Positions 308-30,336 are shown, numbered from the stretch's first letter. The stretch: 30,336 nucleotides of DNA from a candidate division FCPU426 bacterium (GCA_963771075.1 CAVYSE010000012.1:1-30336), one strand, 5' to 3'. Notes: generated from the sequence alone by a model not told the origin. Program-made: numbers and translations.

Positions 308-1046
308 TTATTTTTTCGTTCCCCGACGGGTTTTCCTCATGGACTCCCCTTTCATCGTGATCTTGTGGGAGTTGTGCACCAAACGGTCCAGGATGGCGTC
401 GGAGAGTGTCGGGTTTCCCAAAGCTTCATGCCACTCTTCCACCGGAATTTGGGCGGATACGAGGGTGGACTTACGATCGTAGCGGTCTTCCAGGATCTCG
501 AACAAGGCCCTTCGTTGTTCATCCACCAATGGCATGGAAGCCCAATCGTCCAGGATCAAAAGGTCAAACTTGGCCAGGCATCAAGGAATTTCAAATATTT
601 TCCCTCCACCCCGGGAGATGGCCAATTCCTCGAAGAGCCTTGGAAACCTCAAATACAACACCCGATGACCTTCCCGGCAGGCCTTTTGACCAAAGGCACA
701 AGCCAGATAACTTTTGCCTTCCCCGGTGGGTCCCACAATCAGACAGTTGTCGTGGTCTGAAATCCAACCGCAAGAAGCCAGGGACATCACTTGGCCTTTG
801 TCCAGGCCTCGGGGTTGCTTGAAGTCCAAATCCTCCATACAAGCGTTCAGCCAGCTTGGCCGTACGCAGACGGCTGACGAGTCTTTTGTTCTCTCGTACC
901 GTCATCTCCCGGTCCACCAAAAGCCCGAGCCTTTCCTCGAAACTCAAGGATTTGCAGTTCTTGTTTTCTATTTGCTCCTTGAAAGCTTTCAGCATTCCTT
1001 CCAGGCGTAATGCGGACAACTTTTCCAACATCGGTTGAGCCAACAT
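308..1046 (-). pseudogene. istB: IstB AAA+ helper ATPase, split by two frameshifts (~845 and ~585)
   Basis: Three ORF pieces join into one IstB: LSFEERLGLLVDRE / Walker A GPTGEGKS / Walker B ILDDW and AILDRLVHNSHKITMKGESMR. The breaks may be sequencing errors. Confidence 0.9.
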
Positions 1047-1056
1047 ATAGTCTCCT

Positions 1057-2606
1057 TTAGTTTTGAGTTTGGTAATACTGCGCGCCTCGGACAAACTCAT
1101 GTTCCAAGGCGGGTAATACCGGCTGCTCTTCTACCAATGGCTTTTGATCCAATCCCGATTGGAGAATGGCATGGATCTGACGCAACTTGGGATCAGCCAG
1201 TTTCGAAACTCTCCGACAAGCCGCTTCCAGGCGATCGGGCCCATAGGTTTTTCCCAAGCGCATGATCCCCAAACAGGGCCTAAACCCCTGTTGAGGATGC
1301 ACATGGTTGGACAATATCTTTTCAACTACCGCCTTCGTGGCTTCCCCTGATTGGGCGGCCCATTGGGCCAATCTCACGGGCGTCCATTCGGCATATTCCC
1401 TGTGGTTTTGAGGCATATGTTCCACCAGCGTGGTGTAGCCGTAATCGACGAAGGATCGAACGTGGCTGGCCACCCTCTGGCCTTTGTGGAAAATCTCCAC
1501 CACCGCGCTTGTGACCCTCGCTTCCAACTGCTGGTGTGCCAGTTGATAGGGCGCGCTGTAGTAGTGTTTTTTCAGCTCAACGTGGTAGTCAATGTTCACA
1601 CGCACCTTTTTCCATTCAGCAAACTCGTAAGGGTATTGGGGAAGGGGCTTTAATGCTGGTTTTTCAAGGGTTTCAAACTGTTGGAGACGGCTTCCCGGCA
1701 GTTTTTGGAAAGGCTTTTCGTTGTAGTCCTTCAGGCGTTCCCAGAGGGCCTCATTGAGTTCATGCAGGGAGAAAAAGGTACGGTTTCGCAAAGCCGCCAG
1801 AATCCATCTTTCCGCCACCTGGACCCCCGATTCCACCTTGGCCTTATCCCGGGGTTTGAGGGGTCGGGCTGGAAGAATCGCCGCTTGGTAATGCCGAGCC
1901 ATTTCCTGATAGGTAGCGTTCAGGGTGGGTTCGTAGCGGTGGGCCAACACGACTCCACTTTTGAGATTATCTGGAATTAACAGTTCACTGGTTCCGCCAA
2001 AAAATTCAAATGCCCTGACATGGGAAGCGATCCAATTAGGCAACTCTTGGGTCCAGGTGGCTTCCACGTAGGTGTAGCTGCTGGCCCCCAAGACCGCCAC
2101 GAAGATCTGGGCTTGTTTCACTTCGCCGGTTTTTCGATCCACTACTCCCATCGTCATTCCGGCATAATCCACGAACATCTTTTCCCCGGCCTTGTGAGAC
2201 TGTCTCATCACCACGTCCAAGGTTTTTGCCCAGGCACGGTAAAGATCGCAGAATCGACTGTATCCATATCCTTGGGAATTGGCTTGGCTGTATTCGCTCC
2301 ACAAAAGCATGAGCGTCACGCCTTTTCTCTGAAGTTCCTGGTGAATCCAGGAAAAGTCCGGAAGAGTTCGATTCTCGGTGGGAATACAGGGGGTAGGAGG
2401 AAAAAGCTGTTTTTCCAGCATTTCATCCGTTAAATCTTCCGGCAATGGCCAGTCAGGCGGCAAGCGTTCAACTTCTTGAGATATCCCCTCACTGCGGTGG
2501 GACTTATTCCACAGGATTGGGCTATCGCCCGATGACTTAACTTCTGCTCAAACCTTAACCTCAATACTTCTCGAATTTGACGCATGGGGATTTTTTCCCT
2601 CGGCAT
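1057..2606 (-). pseudogene. istA: IstA DDE transposase with one frameshift near 2465
   Basis: The N-terminal HTH piece (MPREKIPMRQIREVLRL, RBS AGGAGG) lies in one frame. The catalytic part ([23 protein letters not shown]) lies in the 468-aa ORF. Confidence 0.9.
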
Positions 2607-7660: not shown

Positions 7661-7688
7661 ATTTTAGCCACTGGCCCTTGGGTGTCAA
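7661..7688 (-). promoter_or_regulatory. sigma70-type promoter pointing away from rep
   Basis: TTGACA-N16-TAAAAT on the minus strand. Confidence 0.6.
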
Positions 7689-7713
7689 TACCCTTTTAAG
7701 AGCCAGGAGTTGT

Positions 7714-8838
7714 ATGCCGGAGACTTTAAGACCCAAAACCATTGAGTCCGACGACACCCACGCTATAAGTGTCCTTTCCAACCTAGGGTTGCCCTACGTT
7801 TGGATCCCCTATCTCGTAATCGACTTTTACGGCCCTGGGATGGGCCGCGCTGGCTGGCTTTACACCGTTCTTACCCGCCTGGCTGACCACGACACAAAGA
7901 TTGTCGTTAAATACACCGCCGAGGACATTGGGAAGTTATGCGGATGCGACCGAGACACTGTTCACGCCGGGATAAAACGTTTGGAAGCTTTGGGGTTGAT
8001 CAAGAAAATCCCCGGGGACAGGGCTAAAACCAACGAATATTTGCTCATAGAGCCTATTTTCCCGGCTCCTGACCACATCGTAGTTGAATATTTTCCGAAA
8101 GGCTGGAAGCCCTCAAAATCGTCCCTTTTGGCCCTTCAGAAATCGGGCCTTCAATCGAAATATACCCACATACCACAGGTAGTAGGTGAAAATGGGTCGA
8201 GCGGAAATTTTCCGCACGAGGATTCCGAGCCGTATATTTCCCCGAATGAGCCGAATAATTCCGCACGATCAAGCGGAAATTCAGGCCTACCGAGCCGAGA
8301 AAATAGCGTTATGAGCGGAAAAAACCAGCACCTTATAAACAAACAATCTTTAAAAGAAACAAACGAACAGGAAGAAGAGTTTGTCCGTTCCCTTTTTAAA
8401 ATATTTATAACCAAAAGCCCCAACACCGTTTTTGAAAGGTTTGAGGATCTTTGGTTCAAGACCTTTAACCTTTGTGAGGATAACCTAGCCCTGGCACAGG
8501 ATAGGTTTAAAAAAGGCGTTTTTGTCGTGGAGCAGTCCAAAATCGTCAAGGACCCGGAAGGATTGCTTTGGAAGGCCATCGAAAAGGGTTGGTCACCCAG
8601 GGCTACCCCCGAGACACCAACTCCACCAGGCGACGAGCAAAAGCGAATCGAGGACAAATACGACGAGGAATTAAAAGCACAGAGGAAGTCGGCAACGGTC
8701 GAGGTAATTTTGGATTCTTTGGATTTTTTCAAGAAGCACGATAAGAAAAACGACCCCCTGGATACCGTGAAAAAACTTTACGAGGGGAACCCGCACCTGA
8801 ACGAGGCGATTAAGCGTTTCACTGAAAGGGGCAAATAG
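7714..8838 (+). CDS. replication initiator-like protein with N-terminal winged helix-turn-helix
   Basis: RBS AGGAG; AEDIGKLCGCDRDTVHAGIKRLEALGLIKK...TNEY wHTH; low-complexity linker with internal repeats; KDPEGLLWKAIEKGW C-terminal motif; directly upstream of parAB. Confidence 0.78.
   Translation: MPETLRPKTIESDDTHAISVLSNLGLPYVWIPYLVIDFYGPGMGRAGWLYTVLTRLADHDTKIVVKYTAEDIGKLCGCDRDTVHAGIKRLEALGLIKKIPGDRAKTNEYLLIEPIFPAPDHIVVEYFPKGWKPSKSSLLALQKSGLQSKYTHIPQVVGENGSSGNFPHEDSEPYISPNEPNNSARSSGNSGLPSRENSVMSGKNQHLINKQSLKETNEQEEEFVRSLFKIFITKSPNTVFERFEDLWFKTFNLCEDNLALAQDRFKKGVFVVEQSKIVKDPEGLLWKAIEKGWSPRATPETPTPPGDEQKRIEDKYDEELKAQRKSATVEVILDSLDFFKKHDKKNDPLDTVKKLYEGNPHLNEAIKRFTERGK
8199..8331 (+). repeat. 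iteron-like degenerate repeats inside rep (candidate oriV)
   Basis: RAGC(G/C)G followed by an A/T-rich run starts at 8199, 8227, 8248, 8271, 8292 and 8313 (mostly 21-23 bp spacing), then A-rich DNA. Confidence 0.55.
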
Positions 8839-9918
8839 ATGGCCTATAAGATTTCGATTTACAACAAAAAGGGCGGCGTAGGGAAGACGACGATAGCCGT
8901 CAACCTGGCAGCCCTAATCGCCGCCAAAACAAACACCTCTAAAAGGCCCGTCAAACTCAATGGCCGGGTCATCGGGCCGGGCGATCCCTTTTACCGTGTT
9001 CTTTTGATCGACGCGGACCAGCAGGAAAACACGTCCGATTATTTAGGAATGGGTTCTAATTTCCGGGACGACGCCGACAAGGACCGCCATCTAGGGACCG
9101 TCTTAATGGGCGGTTCGATCCAGGAGGCGGTTATCCCCTTCACATCGAGGGATTATTTAAGGGCGGACGCCACAGGCCCGGATGTTCTTTCCGACGAACA
9201 GTGGACCGGGTTTGACGACAACGGCCAGGAAGTCCTACAGAAACGAAAATTCAGGTTCAGGGTCATCAAGAACTTCCACATTGTCCCGGCTCATGCCAAC
9301 CTGGAGAAGGATAAGCCGAGCCACAACGGGAATTATTCCAAGGTGACGAAGGCTTTGGATAAAGCGGGCTTGGAAGAACTCACCCTTGGGGATTTGATGG
9401 ACGAGGATTTATTCAGGGCAAGTCTTTCACCGACCTTGCTGGCCGAAAAGATATCGGAAGTGGAGGACCAATACGATTACATTTTTATTGATTGCCCTCC
9501 CTCTTGGGACCGTCATTCCAAAATGTCGATTCTCGCTTGTGACCAGATCATCATCCCTTTGAAGCCGGGAGAATTCGAGCGGCTTGGAGTCATCCGGGTC
9601 ATGGACCAGCTCGGGGACTTGCAGGCGCTTTACGGCAAAAAACCGGACCTGATTTTCGCCATCATGAACATGATGCGGGGAAATGTTAAGAAGCACACGG
9701 CCTACCACATCAAGAATTTCCGGGAGCTGGGGCGGTTGGTGGCCATGACGGGCATTCCCTTAACGGAGGAAGTGAACAACTCCCAGGGGGACATGGTTCC
9801 TTTTGCCTTTGCCCCCAAGAAGTACCCGGTCATGGTGAAGATTTTCAACAACGTTTTCCGTGAAATCCGGAAAAGATTCTCAGAGCTAGAAACCAAAAAG
9901 GAGGCCGTCCGTGGTTAA
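8839..9918 (+). CDS. parA: ParA/Soj-family ATPase with insertions
   Basis: KKGGVGKTT, VLLIDADQQ and YDYIFIDCPP. Confidence 0.93.
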   Translation: MAYKISIYNKKGGVGKTTIAVNLAALIAAKTNTSKRPVKLNGRVIGPGDPFYRVLLIDADQQENTSDYLGMGSNFRDDADKDRHLGTVLMGGSIQEAVIPFTSRDYLRADATGPDVLSDEQWTGFDDNGQEVLQKRKFRFRVIKNFHIVPAHANLEKDKPSHNGNYSKVTKALDKAGLEELTLGDLMDEDLFRASLSPTLLAEKISEVEDQYDYIFIDCPPSWDRHSKMSILACDQIIIPLKPGEFERLGVIRVMDQLGDLQALYGKKPDLIFAIMNMMRGNVKKHTAYHIKNFRELGRLVAMTGIPLTEEVNNSQGDMVPFAFAPKKYPVMVKIFNNVFREIRKRFSELETKKEAVRG

Positions 9919-10966
9919 GCCTATTTCCTTAAACACGCTGTCCAGCCAAAAACTAACCGGGCTTTTCAAGGACCCGGTCCAGGGGGATCCCCCCAAGGAA
10001 GTCAAAGGCGGCTTTACCCCCGCCGAACTCAAGGCGAGCTTCAAATCGGACGTGGTTTATTCGATCCCGGTCAACGAGGAATGGTTCAACCTGGAAAACC
10101 GGAGACTTGCGACCAGGCGGGCCATCGACCCGGAGGCCGTTCAAAGCATGGGCGAATCCATCAAGACCCACGGCCAGGAGCAGCCGGTCAAATGCCGGTG
10201 GGATGAAACGAACAGGCTACAAATCATCCTTGGGGAAACCCGGACGCACGCTTGCAAGCTCATCGGGAAAGAGGTTCTTGTCCTCATCACGGACGCGGAC
10301 GAGCGGACTTGCAAGGCTTGGGCCCTTTCCGAAAACCTTCAACGCAACGACATGAAGGGGTATGACCAGGCGCTCAAAATGTACGAGCTTCAAAAAGAGA
10401 ATTTTTCAGTGGACGAGATTTCAATTATCGCCAACAAAAAGAAGGCCTTGATTTACCAAACTTTCAAAATTTTTGATTACCCGAAAATCACGGAGGCTTT
10501 GGAGGCGGGGAAGATCACGATTTCAGACGCGAGGCTTTTAGCTTCGACCACTTCCTCCAAGTCACTCGAAGAAGGGCTTCAAGTGAAAGCTATCGAGGCC
10601 CTTTCGGCTGGGACGTTGAAGGTTTCCGACCTTGATTATTTCGCCGACAAAAAGGGAGATATCCCGTTGGCGACCGCACCAGCCGCGCCGGGCCAACCAG
10701 GCGCACCAACAGATCCGGCGTCGAAGTCTGATGATTCGAGCAAACCCAAGACCAAGAGCCACACCGCCAAGGATGACGGAGCTTACTTCAAGAAATTCAA
10801 CGATGGGAAAATCGTGTTCAAGGCAACCGCCGTGCCCGGGAAGACACAGATGGCGGAACTAAAGAAGATGAAACAGGCCGTTGCCGGCTTCTCGGCCGCA
10901 TTGGAAAAAGTTATCACCGTTGCTTCAACCGCGGACAAAGGTAAGAAAAAAGGGAAGAAGGGCTGA
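9911..10966 (+). CDS. parB: ParB/RepB/Spo0J-family partition protein
   Basis: SIKTHGQEQPV, ILGETRTHA (GxxRxxA), ALSENLQRNDM and a following HTH; overlaps the parA stop. Confidence 0.9.
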   Translation: MVKPISLNTLSSQKLTGLFKDPVQGDPPKEVKGGFTPAELKASFKSDVVYSIPVNEEWFNLENRRLATRRAIDPEAVQSMGESIKTHGQEQPVKCRWDETNRLQIILGETRTHACKLIGKEVLVLITDADERTCKAWALSENLQRNDMKGYDQALKMYELQKENFSVDEISIIANKKKALIYQTFKIFDYPKITEALEAGKITISDARLLASTTSSKSLEEGLQVKAIEALSAGTLKVSDLDYFADKKGDIPLATAPAAPGQPGAPTDPASKSDDSSKPKTKSHTAKDDGAYFKKFNDGKIVFKATAVPGKTQMAELKKMKQAVAGFSAALEKVITVASTADKGKKKGKKG

Positions 10967-10991
10967 TTTTTCAACCATCGGGAAAGAATGA

Positions 10992-12878
10992 ATGCTTTCA
11001 AACTTTTATATAAAAATTCTTTGGTTCTTTGGAATCTTTTCGCTCGTCAACTACTTGCTGGAACTTTTCGGGCTGGTTGCGCCCGGGGTTAGCTGGGTGG
11101 ACGTTCTGGCCGTAGCGGCGAATCTTTATTGTGCTTTCCGGCTTGCGAAGGATAAGAAACTTTCCGTTTTGGAGCGCCTGGCCGCTTTGGCACCATGGGT
11201 TGTCTTCACAGAGCATTTTTTCGGTTTGCTCGGAAATAATATAATAACTGTTTTTGTAACCGTCCTGGGCGTCGTGGCCACCACCGTAGTTTTATTCATG
11301 GTTCTTGGAAAGGTTGAGAAGAAGAAGACCGTGACCGCGCCTGTTGACGGCGAAAAAGGGAACTATCCGATTATCCTGGACGAAGAACAGGATTTTTTCA
11401 TTTCCACCAAACAAGTTTTCGAACACGTCCAGGTGATAGGGAAGTCAGGAAGCGGAAAATCCGCCAGCTATTTTTTAAACGCTAAGTTTCAGGCTATCCA
11501 CCAGGGCAAAGGTTGCTTCTCATACGACGCCAAGAGCGAGGAAATTCATATCCTGGCCTATTACGCGCATGAAGCGGGTCGGATTACTGATTTTGTACCC
11601 TTCGATTTGCGTTGCCCGGAGCGTAGCGACAAGGTCAATCCTTTGGCATGGTTCACACCGGAAGGCAAACCCGACTCCCAGGTTGTTTCAAATATTGCCC
11701 AGCAAATTCTTTATTTCGAAAATAAGTCGAATGTGAGCTTTTTCCCCGACACCGGAAAAATGTTCATTCAGAATCTTACCGGACTTCTTCATTACGAATA
11801 CCCGATCATCACTTTTGCGGACTACTACCACGTCGTCACATCTGAAATGGAAAACCTGGATTCAATAAACGCCTTGTGTGAGCTGCACCCTAACAGCACG
11901 GAGGCAAATTATTTTAAGGGCCTTTGGTTGGAAACATCTTCTTCTGAAAGGCGTCAAGCTCTTTCCGGACTTATAAATCTTATAGTGCCATTCGTGCAAG
12001 GACCGTGGGCACCTTTGATAAACACCAAGACGCCCACTTTTCTTATCTCCGACCTCATTAATTCAAACAGGATATTTCATTTTGGGGCGGCGTCTTCCAT
12101 TTACCAATCGGATTATCGACGCTTGGCCGCCTGTTTCTTGATGGGGATAATGATCGAGGTAGGTAAGAGGGCGGCCAAGTTGGAGAAAACCCCTTATGAC
12201 CTATTTATTGACGAGTTCGCCTCTATCGCCTATGAGAAATTCGCAGATACCGTTGGAACGGTAAGGTCAAAGGGGATAGGTATTCATCTAGGTCATCAAT
12301 CCATGGGCGACCTTGATAAAGTCGGCCCGGCCTTTAAGAGAGCGGTTTGCGACAACACGACCACGAAAATTTATTTCCGGGTCCTCTCAAAGGAAACGGC
12401 CAGGGAATGCGCGGACTCCATAGGGACCGAGATCGTGGACCCATACATGGTGAAATCGGTAAAGACAAACGCTGGCCTCTTTGGTGGTTACCAGGAGGCG
12501 GGGGCCACCATTAAAGAAAACGACCGGGCCTACAAAGTCCACCCGGATTTAATAATGGATTTCGTCAAAGGGCAGGCCGCAATAAAAGTGTCTTATGAAA
12601 AGGGTGTGAAGCACGGAATCATCCAATTCAAACTTGCGCCGGAACCGCCGTCATCATTCGATTTTACGGAATATGTGAAAATCAGGAATTACCATAAAGG
12701 CCCTGTTGAGAAAAATTTACCATTCAAAAAGCCCTTGGCCGTGGCGAAGGTGGACCCCTCGCCTGGCACGGGGAAGCAGATGTTCAAAAAGGACGCCATT
12801 TTCGACAAGGTGGACGCCATGAAGAAGGAAATGATCGAGCACCGCAGACCTAAGAAGGTCGAGGACGGATCGAATTGA
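10992..12878 (+). CDS. type IV coupling protein (TraD/TraG/VirD4 family)
   Basis: N-terminal TM helices, HVQVIGKSGSGKS Walker A, LFIDEF Walker B, RSKGIGIHLGHQSMGDL and NTTTKIYFR. Confidence 0.9.
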   Translation: MLSNFYIKILWFFGIFSLVNYLLELFGLVAPGVSWVDVLAVAANLYCAFRLAKDKKLSVLERLAALAPWVVFTEHFFGLLGNNIITVFVTVLGVVATTVVLFMVLGKVEKKKTVTAPVDGEKGNYPIILDEEQDFFISTKQVFEHVQVIGKSGSGKSASYFLNAKFQAIHQGKGCFSYDAKSEEIHILAYYAHEAGRITDFVPFDLRCPERSDKVNPLAWFTPEGKPDSQVVSNIAQQILYFENKSNVSFFPDTGKMFIQNLTGLLHYEYPIITFADYYHVVTSEMENLDSINALCELHPNSTEANYFKGLWLETSSSERRQALSGLINLIVPFVQGPWAPLINTKTPTFLISDLINSNRIFHFGAASSIYQSDYRRLAACFLMGIMIEVGKRAAKLEKTPYDLFIDEFASIAYEKFADTVGTVRSKGIGIHLGHQSMGDLDKVGPAFKRAVCDNTTTKIYFRVLSKETARECADSIGTEIVDPYMVKSVKTNAGLFGGYQEAGATIKENDRAYKVHPDLIMDFVKGQAAIKVSYEKGVKHGIIQFKLAPEPPSSFDFTEYVKIRNYHKGPVEKNLPFKKPLAVAKVDPSPGTGKQMFKKDAIFDKVDAMKKEMIEHRRPKKVEDGSN

Positions 12879-13675
12879 ATTCCCTTCGCGGCGAGCATTA
12901 CAAGATGCTGGCCTATATCCACAGCAACCGAACCATTACCATCGAGCTTTTCAAAGAGAAATTTTTCCCCGGCAAGACCTACCAAAGGGCCTGGCAACTC
13001 ATCGGCCTTTTAAAGCGTAAAAACTACCTTTTTTCCAAGCATGAGAACAAGTTCAAACCGGCTGTCTTTGGGCTGACCCAGGAGGCTTTGTCCGAAATGG
13101 TGTCAAAAGGATTTCTCTTGGCCAAGAGGGTAAGGCCCGTAAGGATTTATTTCGGCCATGAGGCCCACCACGAGGCCGTTACCAGGTTAAGGATCAAGAT
13201 AGAGGGCGACCCGGCATTTTCAGACGTGTTTTGGCTTTCAGACTTCGAGATCAAGCAAGGGATGAGCAAAGAGGCCAAATGGAAATTCCGGGAGCTGGAA
13301 ACCGCCGAGGAGAGGCTTGAGTTCATAAAGACCTGGAAGAAGATAAAGTACAAGCGCGACCCGGACGGATACTTTGACGCGCTGGTTGGTAACGATGAAG
13401 TGGAGTCCTACGTCCTTGAATACGAGCACCAGGAATATTCCAGGACCACAATCCTTGGGATGATCAACGGGCTTGAGGATTCTTTCCGGGGAGCGGGGAA
13501 GTTGGTCGTTTGCAAAACCCCGGAAAGGGAAGACGGGTTTAGGAAGATCCTCGTTCAGACCATGGATTCGATCAAAGGCCGGAGATTCGACTACGGCGAA
13601 TGGATGACGTCCAGCATCGAAAAAGCCACCACCCAACCCTTCAAAACCGCATTTAAAACGTTAAATAAAGACTAA
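12875..13675 (+). CDS. replication-relaxation-family-like putative relaxase (wHTH + PD-(D/E)XK-like)
   Basis: N-terminal wHTH, HEAHH...WLSD...RDPDGYF...VLEYE; start overlaps the T4CP stop, the usual context for this family. Confidence 0.65.
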   Translation: MNSLRGEHYKMLAYIHSNRTITIELFKEKFFPGKTYQRAWQLIGLLKRKNYLFSKHENKFKPAVFGLTQEALSEMVSKGFLLAKRVRPVRIYFGHEAHHEAVTRLRIKIEGDPAFSDVFWLSDFEIKQGMSKEAKWKFRELETAEERLEFIKTWKKIKYKRDPDGYFDALVGNDEVESYVLEYEHQEYSRTTILGMINGLEDSFRGAGKLVVCKTPEREDGFRKILVQTMDSIKGRRFDYGEWMTSSIEKATTQPFKTAFKTLNKD

Positions 13676-13712
13676 AGTCTATTAAATAGACACTTTCCCT
13701 TTTGTTGATATC

Positions 13713-13878
13713 GTTTAAACACTTTTAAGTCGTAAAAACATTACAGGCATTGATCCAAACGATTCCTCGCGCTCCCGACCCCGCTCTTACCGCATCACAT
13801 AATACGTGATGGGTTAGCAAGAGCGGGGTCGGGAGCGCGAGTAATGGATCAATGTAATGTTTTTAAAAGTGTTTAAAC
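13713..13878. repeat. long imperfect inverted repeat (rod hairpin 1)
   Basis: 23-bp perfect core 13766-13788/13819-13841, extended out to GTTTAAACACTTTTAA/TTAAAAGTGTTTAAAC. Confidence 0.92.
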
Positions 13879-13886
13879 AGTTGGAG

Positions 13887-14018
13887 AGAAAAAAACAGCA
13901 GGAAAAAAGCTAGAAAACAGGCCGGAAAAAGTCGGTGAACAAAAGAAGGTTCACCGCCTTTTATAGCCCGGCCAAAGCGGTTTTCTAGCGTTGCGCTTTT
14001 TTCCTGCTGTTTTTTTCT
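13887..14018. repeat. long imperfect inverted repeat (rod hairpin 2)
   Basis: 24-bp perfect outer stem 13887-13910/13995-14018, plus inner stems CTAGAAAAC, GGCCGG and CGGTGAAC. Confidence 0.92.
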
Positions 14019-14019
14019 A

Positions 14020-14320
14020 AAGGTACAGGGCCGCGCGAGTGGCTGGCCCTGCCAAGGCACCGGGCCGCGCGGGAGGCTGGCCCGGCAAAGAGGCACGGCC
14101 CGCTTATGAGGGCGGGCCGCTAGGCATGGCCCCTCGGATATCGGCAGGCGAACCGGGGCCACCAAGGCACAGTTGGCCCAAAGGCAAAGTTCGCCAATGG
14201 GCCAACTGGAAGGCAAGCGGATCAAAAGGCGATCCGCATTAACAGGCGAAAGGCTTATTTATTCATTTCGCCAAAAGGCGTGGCGAAAAGGGGGGGCCGG
14301 GCGTAAGCCCGGCCAAGGTG
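14020..14320. other. tandem array of about eight short GC-rich hairpins with AGGC motifs in linkers and loops
   Basis: Stems such as CAGGGCC/GGCCCTG, CCGGGCC/GGCCCGG, CGGCCCGC/GCGGGCCG, TGGCCCC/GGGGCCA, CAGTTGGCCCA/TGGGCCAACTG, GCGGATC/GATCCGC, TTTCGCCA/TGGCGAAA and GGCCGGGC/GCCCGGCC. Confidence 0.8.
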
Positions 14321-14497
14321 TGAACGTCAAAGGATTCAAACCAGGAGGAAGGAAACCTTCGGTTTCCTTTAGAGGCTTTTTAAAGTCTATTAAATAGACT
14401 TTCACCAATTGGAGTTTTTTGGATAACCGGGATTATCCCGGTAAATTTGTGAGGAAATTTCAGGTTTTAATTTTTTGGGGTTGGTTTTGCTTTTACC

Positions 14498-14525
14498 ATT
14501 TCATATAAACATGGTTATATGAAAT
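14498..14525. other. dif/pdif-like tyrosine-recombinase site
   Basis: ATTTCATATAA-ACATGG-TTATATGAAAT, an 11-6-11 inverted repeat. The right arm matches the XerD arm TTATGTTAAAT at 9/11. Confidence 0.6.
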
Positions 14526-14626
14526 ACTTGACAAGAAGTATACCCGGTATACTTTTCCTTACGGATTCTTTCAAGAAAACTCGGTATAAAAATCGTTATA
14601 CCGAAAGAACGCGACAACGAGTCTAT

Positions 14627-14821
14627 TCAATAGACTTTCAGCTTGGTCATTTCAAGCTTATTCAGGAGCTTTGCGAGCTTATCAAGGGTCTTTAGGAATT
14701 TCTTTACTTCTTTCTTCCGCATGAGGGCTTTCACGACTTTGGGCTTCACTTTATTCCGCACGAGGAATTTCACGAGTTGCGGGGTTTCCTCTTTTATTGC
14801 TTTGGCGGCTCTGGGTTTCAT
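14627..14821 (-). CDS. possible small lysine-rich helical protein
   Basis: MKPRAAK...KLKVY; the only unstructured, protein-like stretch in the non-coding block; no clear RBS. Confidence 0.35.
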   Translation of the reverse strand: MKPRAAKAIKEETPQLVKFLVRNKVKPKVVKALMRKKEVKKFLKTLDKLAKLLNKLEMTKLKVY

Positions 14822-15733
14822 TCGCTTCTGTTTTCGATCCGAGTAATTTTTAGGATTACACAAAATATCATTCCGCATCATAGATTTTAAGACATTGGTT
14901 TAAGGGGGGAAGGGGAAGGGAACAGGAGCACTTCCCTTCCCTGGGCCTTCCCCCTGGGTTGCACTTCCCTTTTGGAAAACCGCCAAAAGGGTGATTGCAA
15001 CCGCACCCCTTTCCCCGGGGGCGACTGCCCCGCGATCCCCTGCCCAAAAGGGAGAACCCCCTTTTGAATTTCCCTTTTTGGGGGAAAGGAAAACAAACGA
15101 GAAGAAGTTTGTTTTCCGTGGGCTTTCCCCCGGGAGACTTCCCTTTTGAAGATCGCAAAAGAGAAGACTCCCTCCCCTTTCCGGTGAGATCAGTTCCCCA
15201 CTTCCCTTTCGTTCATTCCCCTTCCCCTGACCTTTTGGGGACCCCGCCAAGCAGTTAAACCGACTAGCCTGTCCAAAAGTATTTTATCCTCCCGGGGGAA
15301 GGTGTTTTTGGAGTCTATCGGTTTAACAGATTGGCCCTCCCACAAAGGGGCCTTCCCTCCCGGTCCACAAGAACGGCGGACCCGGAACGTAAGCCACCAG
15401 GAGGAAGGGGTCGTTAAGTGCCTCACGGAAGATCCTGAAAATGAAAATTTCCGCGTAACAAAAAAAATACCGCGTCGGTTTCCATTTTCAGGATTGCGGC
15501 CAGAAGGAAAGGCCGCAGGTCGGTTCCCTTCCCTGCCGTTCGGGTGGCGTGAGGTAAAAACCCTTTTTCTGAATTTGTCGTTTGAGGTAGGTATTTTTCC
15601 TTTTCCGGGCATTTCTGTTAGGTCGAGAAAACATTTCAAAATTTCGGCCTTTAAAAGTGAAATCGTCTTTTTTTGGTTTTTCCAGGGTCGGGTTATCTAA
15701 AAAGTCTATTAAATAGACTTTTCTAGTCTCATA

Positions 15734-16098
15734 GCCCGGGTGGTGGACCCCCGGACCCCCCAGGGGGAGGGACGAACCCCCCCTTCCCTTTATCCCCACC
15801 CAAGCCCGGGGGAAAATGACCCCCGGTGCCCCTCAGGCGCAAGTCAACGTGGAAGAAATCCTTTTTCCGGGCGGCTTCGCCGTCCGGGCCGGGGCCTCCG
15901 CCCCTAAACCCCGCCCCTGGCCGGGGCGAATTCTCGCCCTTTCGGCCAACACAGCCGGGCCGGGATTTGCCCGGATGATGCTGACACCTAGACGCACTCC
16001 CCCGGAACAAAGAGTTTCTGGAACCAACAGCCCACACCTTATCGCTCCGAGAACCGCCCCCTAAGTCTTTTAGGGGGGGCGGTCCCCGGAGGCCGCTC
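15734..16098. repeat. ~365-bp structured direct repeat, copy 1
   Basis: Aligns along its whole length with 16915-17278; long identical blocks such as CAACGTGGAAGAAATCCTTTTTCCGGGCGGCTTCGCCGTCCGGGCCGGGGCCTCCGCCCCTAAACCCCG. Confidence 0.95.
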
Positions 16099-16155
16099 TC
16101 TCCTCGGTAAAACAACTAAATTTTAGCGTATTAAGAGAAGTTTATTTCAGCGGGT

Positions 16156-16184
16156 TTGCACTTGTAATCTAAATAGGTTACAAT
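16156..16184 (+). promoter_or_regulatory. sigma70-type promoter with overlapping palindromic operator
   Basis: TTGCAC-N17-TACAAT; inverted repeat TTGTAA...TTACAA at 16162-16183. Confidence 0.6.
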
Positions 16185-16197
16185 CAAGGAGATGAAA

Positions 16198-16470
16198 ATG
16201 AATGAAATTATATGGGACGTGGAAGCGAGAAAGAATTACGACTTTTTGATGTCAGACCGTAAGAACGGATTGACGAAGTTTCAAAAAGACCTTTTGGACC
16301 AGCGGATTGACGCTTTAAGGTGGTGGCCACCGAAAAGGTGGTTCGACTTAAGGAATCAAAAGGATGGGACGGTCACTTTCCAATTGGAAAATGACCAGAT
16401 GGCGGAAATCCAGGGGGCTTTTGTAGATGGTGTGGTTCACATCTACTTTTTCGACATAGAGAAAGGATAA
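16198..16470 (+). CDS. hypothetical protein, possibly divergent RelE/ParE fold
   Basis: RBS AGGAG; IIWDVEARKNYDFL...IDALRWWP followed by beta-strands. An alternative start lies at 16192. Confidence 0.65.
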   Translation: MNEIIWDVEARKNYDFLMSDRKNGLTKFQKDLLDQRIDALRWWPPKRWFDLRNQKDGTVTFQLENDQMAEIQGAFVDGVVHIYFFDIEKG

Positions 16471-16473
16471 AAA

Positions 16474-16794
16474 ATGGCGAACACATTTACCTACAGGCCG
16501 AAAAAATACAGTGTTGACCAATTAAGGGGAATCGCCAGGAAGAAGGGAACCAACTTAAACCGCTTAATTGAGTTTGCGCTTATCGAGAAAATCCACCAGG
16601 ACGAAATCGGGAAGAGAGGGGGGGACGTGGATGCTTTGACGGAAGATTTAAAACGTGTCGTGGTGGAACACATGGGGGTCAAACTCCTCAAGCCCAACCA
16701 AAGAACCCATGAGCGGATTTTGAAAAAGATGAGGGAGACGAATCCCAAGGATATGATTTCCGACCGGTTGGTAAGGCCCCACCGCTACAAATAA
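16474..16794 (+). CDS. ribbon-helix-helix-like DNA-binding protein (candidate antitoxin)
   Basis: TFTYRP...LRGIARKKGTNLNRLIEFAL; 3 nt after the upstream gene; hairpin at 16806-16860 follows. Confidence 0.7.
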   Translation: MANTFTYRPKKYSVDQLRGIARKKGTNLNRLIEFALIEKIHQDEIGKRGGDVDALTEDLKRVVVEHMGVKLLKPNQRTHERILKKMRETNPKDMISDRLVRPHRYK

Positions 16795-16914
16795 TTTCGC
16801 GCAGGTAGGAAACCTCGCCGTCCCCGGGCGGAAGTCTTCCCGGGGCCGTGTAGGTTTCCTCTAAAGACATACCTAGAAGGGAAGGGGGAAACCCCTTCCC
16901 TTCACCTTTTCCTG

Positions 16915-17278
16915 GCCCGGGTGAAGATCCCCCGGACCCCCCAGGGGGAGGGACGAAAAACCCCCTCCCCTTTATCCCCACCCTAGCCCGGGGGAAGTAA
17001 CCCCCGGAGCCCCCACAGCGCACGACAACGTGGAAGAAATCCTTTTTCCGGGCGGCTTCGCCGTCCGGGCCGGGGCCTCCGCCCCTAAACCCCGTCCCTG
17101 GCCGGGCCTCCTCCGTCGGCTATCCGGCCAGCACAGATGGGACGGGCTTTGCCCGGATGATGCTGACACCTAGACGCACTCCCCCGGAACAAAGAATTTC
17201 TGGAACCAACAGCGCCCACCTTTTCGCTCCGTGTACCGCCCCCAAGTCTTTTGGGGGGGCGGTCCCCGGAGGCCGCTC
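16915..17278. repeat. ~365-bp structured direct repeat, copy 2
   Basis: See copy 1; differences cluster in loops. Confidence 0.95.
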
Positions 17279-17310
17279 CCCTCCAACAAATAAATCAAGC
17301 GGAGGGTGAC

Positions 17311-17442
17311 ATGAACGAATTCATGACGAAGTTTATCGAAACGAAATTGATTCTTGAGGAGGCGATAAAGCATCCCGTTCCAGAAGCCGAAATTGACAGG
17401 GCTTTGGAAATGGTTTTGGTGGAAGGGAGGGAATGGTCATGA
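17311..17442 (+). CDS. 43-aa acidic hypothetical protein
   Basis: RBS GGAGG, ATG at 17311, ATGA overlap with radC. Confidence 0.6.
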   Translation: MNEFMTKFIETKLILEEAIKHPVPEAEIDRALEMVLVEGREWS

Positions 17443-17927
17443 ACAGGAAACCCAAACAACTCGAAATGACTTTAGACGTGATGTTCAAAATACCCCCGAC
17501 CACTATTCCGGTTTCATGGGCAGAAGCCCGAGCCGACTACAAGAGGGGACCCGCTTTATCCGGCCCCGGAGACGCAGCCGATTATTTCCGCAAATGGATA
17601 GGCGGGAAGAAGGTCGAGATTTTCTTGACCATGTACGTTGACCACCGCAACCACGTTTTGGACGTAATCGCCGGAGGAGAGGGAACCGTTGACCATACCG
17701 CCGTCTACCCTAGGGAAGTCCTCAAGAAGGCTTTGGAACTAGACGCTTCTGGAATCATCTTGAGCCACGTCCACCCCGGAGGAAGCCTTGAAGCCTCAGA
17801 GGGTGACCGCCAGCTCACACGCCAGATTGTCACCGCTTGCCGTGCGCTTGGAATCACCGTCCATGACCACGTTATCGTGACCCATGAGGGCCACTTTTCT
17901 TTCCGACAAGCCGGGCTTTTGGCTTAA
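17439..17927 (+). CDS. radC: short RadC-like JAB/MPN-domain protein
   Basis: E.F...D..N, GTVDHTAVYPREVLKKAL, HVHPGG..ASEGD..LT and LGITVHDHVIV. Confidence 0.92.
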   Translation: MNRKPKQLEMTLDVMFKIPPTTIPVSWAEARADYKRGPALSGPGDAADYFRKWIGGKKVEIFLTMYVDHRNHVLDVIAGGEGTVDHTAVYPREVLKKALELDASGIILSHVHPGGSLEASEGDRQLTRQIVTACRALGITVHDHVIVTHEGHFSFRQAGLLA

Positions 17928-17955
17928 CAAGGAATTCAAAATTTACTAGAAGCGG

Positions 17956-18034
17956 AGCCCTGGCCACCAGGCCGGGGCTTTCAGCTTTTGAGGGAAATCA
18001 AAAAAGCGGGGGCTTTGCCCCCGCTCCCCTTTTT
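17956..18034 (+). terminator. tandem terminator-like hairpins after radC
   Basis: AGCCCTGGCC/GGCCGGGGCT-TT and AGCGGGGGC/GCCCCCGCT...TTTTT. Confidence 0.55.
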
Positions 18035-18185
18035 ATCGCGCCGATTTTGGCTTTGCCCTTATAAATCGGCGCTCATTTAAGAAAATATTGCATCTCGCTC
18101 TTAATCGATCAGGCGTAAAATTGTCGGACCAAAAGGGAAAAGGTCGTCCACGATGGGGACCCATCGTGAACAAAGGAGAATGTAT

Positions 18186-18229
18186 ATTGTGTACATAATT
18201 GTTGACATAATTATAAGAAATCCTATATT
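18186..18229 (+). promoter_or_regulatory. TA operon promoter with tandem palindromic operators
   Basis: TTGACA-N16-TATATT; ATTGTGTACATAAT (18186) and ATTGTTGACATAAT (18198). Confidence 0.6.
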
Positions 18230-18271: not shown

Positions 18272-18550
18272 ATGCGAGTCGCGGGGGTAAGGGAATTTAG
18301 GGATCACGCGCCGGAGTTTCTGAACGGCCATGATCTCGTGTTTGTGACCAAACACGGGAAAGTTGCAAGCCTTTTGGTTCCGATGACCAAATCACAGGAA
18401 CTTCCTTTAGAATTGCGGAAAGAGCTTTTGACGAACTTGGGCTTTGCCATTTCGAATCACCTTAAAAAATCAGGCGTCACTGAGCGGACGGTCACACATG
18501 ACTTTGAAACATGGAGAAAAGGCCGCCGGTCGGATCGCCGCGGACGCTAA
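18272..18550 (+). CDS. Phd/YefM-family antitoxin
   Basis: GVREFRDHAPEFL...VFVTKHGKVASLLVP. Confidence 0.85.
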   Translation: MRVAGVREFRDHAPEFLNGHDLVFVTKHGKVASLLVPMTKSQELPLELRKELLTNLGFAISNHLKKSGVTERTVTHDFETWRKGRRSDRRGR

Positions 18551-18929
18551 CGTCCTTCTTTCCGCTGTAACCGGCAGGGCTGCCCTCAAAGTTTTCACCC
18601 AATCCCACCTTGAAATCATATCCACGACCTTGAATATCCATGAGGTTCGGGAATACATACCGATAATGGCAGAGAAATACGGTATAGCCGTGGAACTTTT
18701 GGAAAGCCAATTTCAATTATTAGCCCTCAAGGAGTACAGCTTGAGGGATTATCAAGGTTCGCTTGCAATGGCCCGCAAAAAAATCGGGAAAAGAGACCCG
18801 GACGATGTCGATTTGCTGGCTTTAGCGCTTGAGTTGGAAATACCCATTTGGTCAAACGACGGGGATTTTGAAGGAACAGGCATTGAGTGGTACACCACGG
18901 CCCAACTTCTTAAAAAGTTGGGGCTTTAA
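18498..18929 (+). CDS. PIN-domain (VapC-like) toxin; start approximate
   Basis: DANVLLSA, E, RDPDDVDLLALAL and IWSNDGDF; overlaps the antitoxin. Confidence 0.9.
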   Translation: MTLKHGEKAAGRIAADANVLLSAVTGRAALKVFTQSHLEIISTTLNIHEVREYIPIMAEKYGIAVELLESQFQLLALKEYSLRDYQGSLAMARKKIGKRDPDDVDLLALALELEIPIWSNDGDFEGTGIEWYTTAQLLKKLGL

Positions 18930-19205
18930 TCTGATGATTTTGTTGTCCACGACGGGGACCCTGAAGGAACACCAAAATTGGTGGATAATGGATGATCCCA
19001 ATTTTTACACGCTCTGCCGGTCGTGCTTTGAGGATTCGATTTTCAGTGATACGCTAAGTTCTGTGAAAGATGATGTCGACATTGAATCTGCATTTGAGCT
19101 AATCCAAATCACGCCGAATTCGGCTGAACATTGAAAAAGTCCAATAAATACTGGCTCCTGCACATGGCGGTTTTAAAAAGGATGGTGTGCAACTTTTTTT
19201 CCCTG

Positions 19206-28653: not shown

Positions 28654-30336
28654 CCTTCTCTGAAAACATTGCCGGGTAATTTGTTTCTCATTATATTGCC
28701 CCCCCCCCGCTTCTTCCAACGAAATTCAGAATTTTCTGGCCCAGGGCCAGTGAAATGAGTTCCGGGAAAAGGTTTCTGTGCCCGAAAAGAGTTGAAAATG
28801 ACCTTCCAGAAAGCAATTTCTCGTTGTGAGCGCACACCTATCCCAGGGTAGTCGATCCGGCTAAGGCCATGAAGCGTTCCTGCGTTTATCGCAGTACTGG
28901 CGCTCGCGGCCTTACCATCGCCAGCAGCCGTATCCGATTAAGGATTTCAGCAAACAAGTGCCGGGAAACCATCACCTCCGCCATCTGGAAAACCACGTAC
29001 CGCGAATGGCGGATGACATTAGCACCGATCTTGATGAGTTTTTCCCGCAGGGTTGTCAGCGACCAATGCTTCACCAGTTCTGGCAATACCAGTCGGCGAA
29101 GGAAGTTGCCTAGGTTGTAAGCCAGGGCGAAAAGTTGTAACCGCACCTGGTTATCCGCGAAGTCGTGGCAGCTTAGTCTTGTCCACTTCATCGCATACTT
29201 TCCCTCTTTGATCCACTGCTCAGCCGTGCCTCTTCCGTTGTAGAATTTCACCACCTGGGGTGCCGGTCGTCGCATGTTCGTTACGATGAAACCCACCTTT
29301 GGGAACAATTCCCCGTTGTGATGTTCGATCTTCGCCACCACGCGGCGGGGTTTGTCCCAGCTGACGGCTTGGTATTGGAAGCTGTGAAACCGGACAACCG
29401 GCTTGTGGGAGGGGCGGCCCACGGGACGGGTTAAAAATGGCTCGATTTCCCGTTGGAGTATGGCATTGGCAGGTTGGCGGATCGCGTAAAGATATCCTTC
29501 GTCTTCTAGGTATTCGTATAGTTCCTGACGGGCGAAAGCCGCGTCACCCCGGAAAAACCGGCTGATGGAAAGACCCCGGTAGCGGGCAACTACCGGTTCA
29601 AGAACCGAACGCCATTCGTGGGCACTGGCCACATTGCCGTTGCGCAACATAGCCCGTTCCAAATCGCCGAACTGGTTGAAGCAAAACAGGGGATGGTAAC
29701 AGGTACAGCCAAAGTAACCGTTGTACAAGGAACCTTCCTGATCCCCGTAGGTCTCGCTCACTGAGCTATCCATGTCGAGGATGATCTGTTGTATGGACTT
29801 TTTCTCATGGACTCCATCGATCCATTGGCCCGATAAGTCAATTAAGCCGGTCAAATTCTTCGACTGGGTGAGGACCTCCGTCTCGAAACGACCCATCTGG
29901 CTGGTGGAGGCGGCCTGTTTTTCCCTGGCCCGTCCTCCGATCACATGCCGCATCGCAGGATCGACACTCAGGCGTTCTGCGTCGTTGGTATCCTCATAAC
30001 CGGCCAAGCGGCTGAATACCGACTGGCGAAGAAGCGCCGTCATCGTGTGTTGCGTATTCTTACCGGTCCGCCGATCCCAAAGGATGTTTTCTGTTCTGTC
30101 AGTCAAACCAAAAGCTTCGTCGAGTTCGCGATAGGGAATCAACCCGCCATCGGAAGTGACCTTCGCACCATGGAACTCCAACTTGAGGCCAGGATCAAAA
30201 ACCACCCGAAGAGCGTCTTTTCCGCCTTCACCCATTGCATTTCCCCCTCTCATGTTCCCCAACACGAAGAAAAACCTTTGTTTATATGGCCAAACGTTGT
30301 CTTATTATACTCGAAAGGAAATTCCATCTGGGAAAT
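28636..30336 (-). mobile_element. IS1380-family insertion sequence (right end clipped by the window edge)
   Basis: Terminal IR CCGGAATTTCCCAGATG at 28636 versus CATCTGGGAAAT at 30325-30336. Confidence 0.9.
28886..30265 (-). CDS. IS1380-family DDE transposase (probable start 30235)
   Basis: VTSDGGL, GYEDTND, ILDMDSS, CYHPL, FRGDAAF and FYNGRGTAEQWIKEGK. Confidence 0.96.
   Translation of the reverse strand: MLGNMRGGNAMGEGGKDALRVVFDPGLKLEFHGAKVTSDGGLIPYRELDEAFGLTDRTENILWDRRTGKNTQHTMTALLRQSVFSRLAGYEDTNDAERLSVDPAMRHVIGGRAREKQAASTSQMGRFETEVLTQSKNLTGLIDLSGQWIDGVHEKKSIQQIILDMDSSVSETYGDQEGSLYNGYFGCTCYHPLFCFNQFGDLERAMLRNGNVASAHEWRSVLEPVVARYRGLSISRFFRGDAAFARQELYEYLEDEGYLYAIRQPANAILQREIEPFLTRPVGRPSHKPVVRFHSFQYQAVSWDKPRRVVAKIEHHNGELFPKVGFIVTNMRRPAPQVVKFYNGRGTAEQWIKEGKYAMKWTRLSCHDFADNQVRLQLFALAYNLGNFLRRLVLPELVKHWSLTTLREKLIKIGANVIRHSRYVVFQMAEVMVSRHLFAEILNRIRLLAMVRPRAPVLR

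Follow-up and report, generated by a model that had tools for sequence, protein, structure and literature searches.

In this study, we analyzed a window of 30,336 nucleotides from an uncultured bacterium of candidate division FCPU426 (GCA_963771075.1 CAVYSE010000012.1:1-30336; contig C12) and focused on the stretch at 13674-17280, which lies directly downstream of a gene for a MOBC-like relaxase. On balance, this folded stretch is probably a row of separable DNA modules: a likely origin of transfer (oriT) in the form of a rod, likely ParB-centromere palindromes, host-matched dif-like sites, and covarying cassettes that are candidate promoters or primers on single-stranded DNA (ssDNA). The reading is built on linkage, covariation and sequence matches, and every activity named below is predicted from them. 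DNA matches to the stretch were found in 15 of the 99 genomes of the phylum and in 12 of the 30 other genomes of its own family, and the modules reshuffle independently of one another between related elements. The copies of each module are related by descent, so that the counts given here are not independent, which weakens the case to that extent.

A first-pass annotation had described the stretch as a non-coding platform of ~3.6 kb and as the best candidate for a new system in the window. The features that it named are in place: four copies of a repeated palindrome (at 13674, 14382, 14618 and 15701), twin rods (13713-13878 and 13887-14018), hairpins spaced by AGGC, dif-like sites of the form ATAA-N6-TTAT, a duplicated 365-bp element (15734-16098 and 16915-17278, 88% identical) and TTC triloops (14351-14367 and ~15873). 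However, the stretch is not purely non-coding, since an open reading frame (ORF) of 84 amino acids (aa), a 92/106-aa pair (16192-16794) and a 43-aa ORF (17311) lie within it or at its edge. Every module has a known counterpart, and the region is therefore not a new kind of system; its new features are a dif array matched to hosts and a conflict over which strand is used, and the code in the Xer helix is a further surprise. That the region is part of a mobilization system is supported.

Folding was assessed with DNA parameters in 120-nt windows, each against 25 dinucleotide shuffles. A z score of -2 or below on at least one strand was obtained in 14 of 20 windows at 13741-16140 and in 4 of 5 at 16741-17340, compared with 6 of 49 in control coding DNA (7741-13620). 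Most windows thus fold better than their shuffles, but the statement that nearly all of the DNA folds into hairpins went too far, as 6 of the 20 windows were unremarkable. The modules are as follows (strand in brackets where one is assigned).

13674-13694: parS-like palindrome copy 1; overlaps the relaxase stop
13713-13878: rod 1, predicted oriT; core arms 13762-13788 and 13819-13845, conserved loop motif GCATCA at 13792
13823-13833 (plus), mirrored at 13774-13784 (minus): nic-like 11-mer of rod 1, similar to the CloDF13 nic
13887-14018: rod 2; 89% identical in L003, other rods or hairpins in its place in more distant elements
14020-14370: short-hairpin array with A(A)GGC spacers; partly retained in L003 and L034
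14382-14402: parS-like palindrome copy 2
14416-14443: dif-like site A, degenerate; 9/10 and 7/10 to the arm of host G048
14498-14525: dif-like site B; arms identical (10/10 and 10/10) to the chromosomal site of G046, G047 and G054, Xer helix class RY
14579-14606: dif-like site C; arms match the own host's class DY (10/10 and 10/10), spacer unlike that of the chromosome
14618-14638: parS-like palindrome copy 3
14900-15500 (minus, tentative): 'pyrimidine' module, conserved multi-branched fold, first cassette after oriT
15701-15721: parS-like palindrome copy 4
15734-16120 (minus, tentative): conserved upstream repeat copy 1, candidate ssDNA promoter/primer cassette; no start codon directly behind
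16798-17306 (minus, tentative): conserved upstream repeat copy 2, long form; ends in an anti-Shine-Dalgarno (SD)/SD hairpin at 17279-17306

Relaxase and predicted origin of transfer

The folded stretch is preceded by a five-gene operon for a helix-turn-helix (HTH) protein, ParA, ParB, a coupling protein and the 266-aa relaxase-like protein. The VirD4-type coupling protein gene adjoins the relaxase gene, as expected for a MOBC system. Five of 30 aligned relaxase homologues match Replic_Relax (PF13814; best E 7.4e-9), which CONJscan names MobC (PMC5357655); the window protein itself has no match. The relaxase-like protein, of which 28 relatives were present among cluster representatives, has a PD-(D/E)xK-like nuclease domain with conserved PDG and LEYE motifs and no HUH motif. 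Its structural model (predicted local distance difference test, pLDDT, 96) consists of a winged helix and a restriction-nuclease-like domain. Residues 92-266 align with SdaI (Z 8.6, root-mean-square deviation 4.2, 131 residues aligned), and the best Foldseek row is FokI (E 6e-3). No solved TraX-like structure was found by sequence or fold search.

Rod 1 is very likely the oriT of this element, because rods of its type are linked to relaxases, covary without G-U pairs and resemble the nic and rod of CloDF13. Of 44 distinct relaxase homologues, 25 are followed by a same-type rod at a distance of at most 700 bp, whereas an upstream match was found for one; the rod of L083, with unresolved bases in its loop, was entered as a miss. 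In six loci without an adjacent relaxase, the rod profile finds a rod 0.5-1.1 kb ahead of a pyrimidine module, and in the map of G053 cargo sits between relaxase and rod. The own genome has seven rod matches, of which five stand just after a relaxase match, one before a pyrimidine module and one inverted. One relaxase homologue in the genome (G000:C2:14783-15563) is split over two frames, ~8.5 kb from its rod.

Across 26 aligned rods, 98.1% of 364 cells are paired, with 81 double-sided changes and no G-U pair. The right arm of rod 1 agrees with the CloDF13 nic site, taken as the reference for the 11-mer (PMC5935869), at 9 of 11 positions (range 6-9 of 11 across 25 rods). In CloDF13, the nic motif is located in one arm of a branched-loop rod, the arm distal to the mob genes, and a near copy is present on the other strand. 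A related oriT has two nic sites in its repeat, and either strand may be transferred (PMC2262945).

Several points weigh against this assignment. The rods were selected by an inverted-repeat search, and their pairing is partly by construction, although the letter conservation of arms and loop is not inflated by it. In 21 of the 25 rods, no more than 6-8 of the 11 nic positions agree, and 19 of the 44 relaxases have no adjacent rod. The likeness to the MOBC oriT of CloDF13 (also pMET1/HPI-ECOR31) includes a coupling protein with a MOBC-type relaxase, a branched-loop rod and a nic-like 11-mer in one arm, mirrored on the other strand. Here, however, the rod is downstream of the relaxase with the mob genes pointing towards it, while the order in CloDF13 is oriT-mobB-mobC, and the nick position here is predicted. 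The oriT2 of pAD1 is a further MOBC oriT for comparison. With the rod, an oriT family can be delimited for a class of relaxases on which little is known.

Behind the rod, rod 2 and the AGGC array are replaced in several loci (L040:13150-13400, L038, L045, L048 and G000:C7, with no rep-par operon in view) by a strongly purine-rich tract with GTGGTAGG-like words followed by a hairpin.

Palindromes, dif-like sites and the host Xer recombinase

ParB-parS and KorB-operator centromeres consist of several copies of one palindrome near a parAB operon, and their sequence follows the HTH of ParB. With good confidence, the palindrome of the window is predicted to be such a parS, since its sequence follows the ParB helix and not Rep. 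All six rep-par elements examined have a different palindrome each, in 2-4 copies around the relaxase end; one shared by two G070 contigs is a possible seventh. The tracking of palindrome and ParB helix covers these six elements and has two informative pairs. L102 and L103 have a common palindrome and ParB helix, though their Reps are only 26% identical, whereas the window and L003 differ in palindrome and ParB helix with nearly the same Rep and relaxase helices. Rep was rejected as the palindrome binder, as its helices do not track the palindrome. Elsewhere in the own genome, the palindrome has a single match, with 4 mismatches. In contrast to the known centromeres, the copies here are interleaved with oriT, dif and cassettes, and the binding of ParB is predicted. 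The post-relaxase region of L003 has a palindrome (7680-7700) that may be the RK2 KorB operator sequence.

The dif-like sites are likely to be Xer resolution sites, as judged from their sequences and those of the host enzymes. A single-copy Xer-like recombinase is present in 30 of 31 family genomes, and a symmetric 11-6-11 site lies just before xer in 25 of the 28 with upstream sequence. In the own genome, the chromosomal xer gene has a symmetric dif directly upstream (G000:C6:114166-115235; L106, L120), and its product scores below the XerC/XerD cut-offs. The polarity of GGGNAGGG, which we take to be a KOPS-like motif (FtsK-orienting polar sequence), flips at this site (29:9 on the left, 5:12 on the right), as expected at a terminus. 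The GC-skew maximum of contig C6, however, is 24 kb away.

The arm classes of the sites follow one helix of the Xer enzyme. All 13 'DY' Xer proteins go with GG-containing arms (including one hybrid site and one GGGATAA variant), all three 'RY' proteins with the arm TTTCATATAA, and seven of the eight 'HF/NF' proteins that have a site with the arm ACTTCTATAA. At least five arm variants covary with the Xer helix across the species of the host family. With each of three helix classes linked to an arm sequence of its own, the family holds a naturally occurring code of Xer specificity. Element sites scoring at least 18/20 were present in 7 of 7 rep-par element loci, compared with one marginal match among 15 other loci. 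Mixed arm classes also occur in L036, L047 and L103, and L102 has two DY-type sites; against an array as the rule, L003 and L034 have a single site each. The element includes the arm class of its own host in all five comparable genomes (G000, G050, G052, G067 and G070). Five such sites exist in the own genome, of which one is chromosomal, two lie in the window and two are marginal.

The spacers of the element sites differ from that of the chromosome and from one another, which fits dimer resolution rather than integration. Integration at the chromosomal dif, as by integrative mobile elements exploiting Xer recombination (IMEX), was rejected because the own-genome site is on another contig and the spacers differ. 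An unlikely alternative to resolution is that the dif-like sites flank mobile gene cassettes, in the manner of pdif modules, or are operators to which Xer binds. Small ORFs do lie between successive sites in L036, L047, L102 and L103. Neighbouring sites are unlike in arm class and spacer, though, so that exchange between neighbours is disfavoured by the known Xer mechanism (PMC5357621), and the sites are found in rep-par elements and hardly in integrase-type ones. An operator role would agree with TTGACA behind most sites and with the chromosomal site abutting the xer start codon, by which Xer may also be a repressor; inspection by eye found no consistent -10 box after TTGACA. The pyrimidine tracts were considered as KOPS pointing to the dif array and rejected, as both orientations are similarly frequent (5:8 in the window).

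Single-recombinase Xer/dif systems (XerS/difSL, XerH/difH and XerA) and the plasmid sites cer, psi and pdif share the 11-6-11 layout and plasmid copies of the site, and in xerS-difSL one xer gene adjoins its site (PMC5357621). Here, in contrast, the site is fully symmetric with a 6-bp spacer, several allotypes covary with the Xer helix, and one element bears different allotypes side by side. No report of multi-host dif arrays was found in the literature (titles and abstract openings; subscription papers lay outside the search). The host range of plasmids is usually credited to replication and defence, and host-matched resolution sites would add a determinant that can be read from sequence. Related elements also carry transfer RNA (tRNA) genes. 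A tRNA-Ala gene lies between dif array and pyrimidine module in L102 (11207-11280, CGC) and L047 (2249-2320, AGC; anticodons by ARAGORN), and a tRNA-Gly gene is present in L034 (14350).

Folded cassettes and the strand on which they act

Two kinds of folded cassette follow the dif array. Profile searches with the 365-bp repeat gave 50 matches, and 27 copies were recognized by their 3' ends, some from near-identical loci. An SD sequence and an ATG start codon follow at 32-39 nt in 23 of the 27, and this fixed spacing ties the cassette to expression and not to priming alone. The genes behind these 23 copies are radC (7), ardC (6), ORFs of the 43-aa type (5) and others (5). Among 16 aligned copies, 94.4% of 1003 cells are paired (38-61% in slid controls), 33 of 63 pairs change on both sides and G-U pairs occupy 14 of the 1003 cells. 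In eight pyrimidine modules, 41 of 92 pairs covary in the plus fold and 47 of 104 in the minus fold. In five other elements, a leader of ~1 kb has the pyrimidine module as its 5' half and closes with a hairpin, a run rich in A and a ribosome-binding site. A ~65-nt hairpin insert with its own palindrome occurs inside repeat loops and pyrimidine modules (L034:10611, L036:13430 and 13930, L037, L042), and its presence in both cassette types points to shuffling of sub-modules.

The rarity of G-U pairs and the lack of an Rfam match suggest that the cassettes act as DNA. Rfam 15, including the radC motif RF01754, gave only hairpin-like matches far below gathering scores in the window region (E up to 1), and on four related loci only a S-adenosylmethionine (SAM) riboswitch away from the modules. 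The proposal of large unknown non-coding RNAs (ncRNAs) is thus not supported. That of an elaborate ssDNA-stage control region holds in part. The folded parts behave like ssDNA structures, covarying almost only by Watson-Crick swaps, and the cassettes precede establishment genes as Frpo and ssi do. However, the modules shuffle independently and do not form one platform, and for the palindromes and dif sites, binding of proteins to double-stranded DNA is the best reading.

We give about an even chance to the cassettes being ssDNA promoters on the template strand. A stable conserved fold upstream of establishment genes is shared with the Frpo and ssi elements of F, ColIb-P9 and pESBL (classes 1-3), in which repeated folded cassettes also stand upstream of anti-defence and toxin-antitoxin-type genes near oriT, with folding that leans, here modestly, to the template strand (PMC9849209, PMC12672017, PMC11541004). 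The cassettes here differ in that no -35/-10 boxes were found, no sequence match was found in 72,556 plasmids and the genes are directed away from the predicted oriT. The lack of boxes speaks against promoters: no conserved sigma70, sigma54 or -35/-10 box was detected in the 16 repeat copies, the eight pyrimidine modules or the repeats of the window. A sigma54-type ssDNA promoter was considered and rejected for both cassettes. In the repeats, GG-N10-GC stands at one position in at most 9 of 16 copies; all eight pyrimidine modules have it at one and the same position of the plus strand, where, however, conservation does not extend to the looser full consensus. Repeat 2 had no blastn match (E 0.01) in the 72,556 plasmids, a collection in which the presence of pLS20 was unchecked, and patterns of the repeat end occurred at four loci among genome contigs and none among viral contigs.

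The minus (template) strand is modestly favoured. It is the more stable strand in 12 of 12 repeat copies, and all eight pyrimidine modules favour it by more than the mean of their shuffles. In strand-neutral helices, A-C outnumbers G-T on the plus strand by 13:4 and 14:8 with DNA parameters and by 14:7 and 10:9 with RNA parameters. In 13 of the 16 copies aligned, the loop of the repeat's small hairpin reads G..A on the minus strand. TTC/GAA triloops, noticed in two hairpins by the first-pass annotation, did not hold up as a general signature: of 63 distinct triloop hairpins in the family, 10 have GNA on the minus and 3 on the plus strand, and the genomic control has 31 and 23 of 416.

Other results argue against the minus strand. 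The advantage of the repeats is clearly above shuffles in only 2 of 8 copies, so that composition explains much of it, and the pyrimidine module with RNA parameters gives only the 10:9 above. Independent counts of A-C against G-T mismatches were 11:4 (repeats; p=0.12), 9:4 and 12:15 (post-relaxase regions), compared with 680:573 in shuffles, and none is significant. Moreover, every gene points away from the rod in all mapped elements, and relaxases are usually in lagging position (PMC11541004). The direction of the genes, a relaxase that trails as usual and the nic geometry of CloDF13 together predict transfer of the plus strand, which cannot template the cassette-linked genes. Three ways out can be seen. 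The transferred strand may be the minus one, which would place the cassettes at its 3' end, a position that calls for a primer as well; transfer may be possible for both strands; or the cassettes may operate in the manner of those in pLS20.

The last possibility, which we regard as rather unlikely, is that the plus strand is transferred first with the cassettes leading but non-template. They would then fold on the plus strand as single-strand origins, or as read-through blocks that silence the establishment genes until second-strand synthesis; the oriT, parS and dif readings would be unchanged. The EGeRS1 repeats of the pLS20 family offer a close precedent. They are GC-rich, multi-branched and multi-hairpin (400-750 bp in the family, 420-750 bp in pLS20), stand directly upstream of the ribosome-binding sites of ardC and small genes, have no sigma70 or other promoter and come in modular length variants; they block read-through, and the transferred strand is non-template (PMC8708921). 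The cassettes here share the size range, the GC-richness, the multi-branched fold, the place in front of the ribosome-binding sites of ardC and other small genes, the lack of a sigma70 promoter and the modular variation in length. The nic geometry, the genes directed away from the rod in every mapped element and the failure to find promoter boxes in the cassettes are all in keeping with this. Most strand tests, on the other hand, lean, if weakly, to the minus strand, the G..A loops are on that strand in the 13 of 16 copies, and the 32-39 nt spacing to the start codon is fixed. pLS20 also has another host group and relaxase family, no sequence similarity to pLS20 EGeRS1, for which >60% would be expected of a family member, was detected, the cassettes here start within ~1 kb of oriT, and their covariation shows a fold under selection. 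A literature search for follow-up on EGeRS found only the original paper (subscription papers lay outside it). The covarying cassettes may serve as a model for a question left open by EGeRS1, namely by what means, and from which strand, establishment genes are driven by folded repeats that lack a promoter.

A role of the cassettes as RNA from the plus strand, be it as structured leaders (attenuators or translational switches) or as ncRNAs, is improbable. In its favour, the cassettes end in an anti-SD/SD hairpin on that strand, and RNA motifs have been described in association with radC (RF01754) and near antirestriction genes (STAXI; PMC2864571). Against RNA stand the absence of an Rfam match at gathering score, the few G-U cells of the repeats (14 of 1003; zero in the rod), the lack of plus-strand enrichment for GNRA (2 of 46) and cUUCGg loops (0 of 46) and the less stable fold there.

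Under the ssDNA reading that we prefer, the relaxase would cut rod 1 in one of its arms, at the motif that resembles the CloDF13 nic, and the strand would be passed by the coupling protein to the type IV secretion system (T4SS) on contig C8. While the DNA is single-stranded, the cassettes would take up their folds, with the minus (template) strand as the most likely one, and short-lived transcripts of ardC, radC and toxin-antitoxin-like genes would be made from them by RNA polymerase; these transcripts could also prime second-strand synthesis. In the double-stranded state, the cassettes would fall silent and ParB would load at the palindromes. The single Xer of the resident host would recombine the fitting dif look-alike with its twin in a dimer, giving resolution in several species, and spacers that differ would keep neighbouring sites from recombining with one another or with the chromosome. 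More speculatively, and doubtful at present, the dif array may be a 'key ring' with one site per Xer specificity class of the host family, by which dimers could be resolved in any species entered, combined with a new class of box-less ssDNA promoters for anti-defence genes on the strand sent last, or either way, by a symmetric MOBC origin. If this is true, an establishment island would lie at the trailing end, against the leading-region rule.

Neighbouring genes and the wider element

The genes in and around the stretch are listed below.

7678-8838 (plus): Rep-like protein with HTH domain, putative replication role; Pfam HTH_36/HTH_Crp_2 below cut-off, first gene of the same operon in 6 related elements
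8839-9918 (plus): ParA ATPase; AAA_31/CbiA
9911-10966 (plus): ParB, likely palindrome binder by helix comparison; ParB_N, TIGR00180 over cut-off
10992-12878 (plus): type IV coupling protein, VirD4/TraD-like; TraG-D_C, T4SS-DNA_transf, TrwB_AAD_bind
12875-13675 (plus): MOBC-like (Replic_Relax) relaxase, 266 aa; PF13814 on homologues, predicted structure
14627-14881 (minus): 84-aa basic ORF; no homologue among family loci examined
16155-16184 (plus): sigma70-like promoter match overlapped by a palindrome (16162-16183); likely operator of the gene pair
16192-16470 (plus): 92-aa RelE/ParE-like candidate; Atlas TM 0.61-0.67 to RelE/ParE-type clusters, under the naming bar
16474-16794 (plus): 106-aa putative antitoxin by position; homologous to partners in other small gene pairs
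17311-17442 (plus): 43-aa ORF; stands behind 5 repeat copies in the family
17433-17927 (plus): RadC-like JAB protein; PF04002 over cut-off

The 84-aa ORF may not be a real gene. The 92-aa protein had no Pfam or NCBIfam match, and no family match was found for the 106-aa putative antitoxin. A PIN-domain toxin-antitoxin-like pair is located at 18272-18929 of the window, with a sigma70 match at 18202.

The first 4895 nucleotides of the window match the start of contig C8, reversed, at 99.5% identity. C8 carries a VirB4-like gene, ArdC, a DUF2958 homologue and three further copies of the 365-bp repeat. The two contigs are predicted to form one conjugative element, probably of at least 124 kb and probably a plasmid; no tRNA genes were found on C12 or C8. 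With the coupling protein as query against genome contigs, no locus was confirmed, and protein and rod searches in L157 and L158 were without match, the contig of L157 apparently stopping within the operon.

The block of gene pair, repeat and radC at 16203-18172 is 98.7% identical to G000:C8:90518-88546, and the segment 15734-17300 is 96% identical in another species of the genus (G048:C183), both of which indicate recent cassette exchange. G053 (C4:183000-246000) has tandem integrative and conjugative elements of the same family, in which the T4SS operon and integrase are repeated, with coupling protein, relaxase, cargo, rod and ardC between them. A ~38-bp sequence at 19157-19194 has many genome-wide matches, one of them where the C8 copy of the 92-aa gene is cut. 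A short serine recombinase stands divergent to repeats in C8, L051 and L053. The genes at the contig ends (window 308-2463 and 28886-30265) are presumably IS21-like and IS1380-like insertion sequences.

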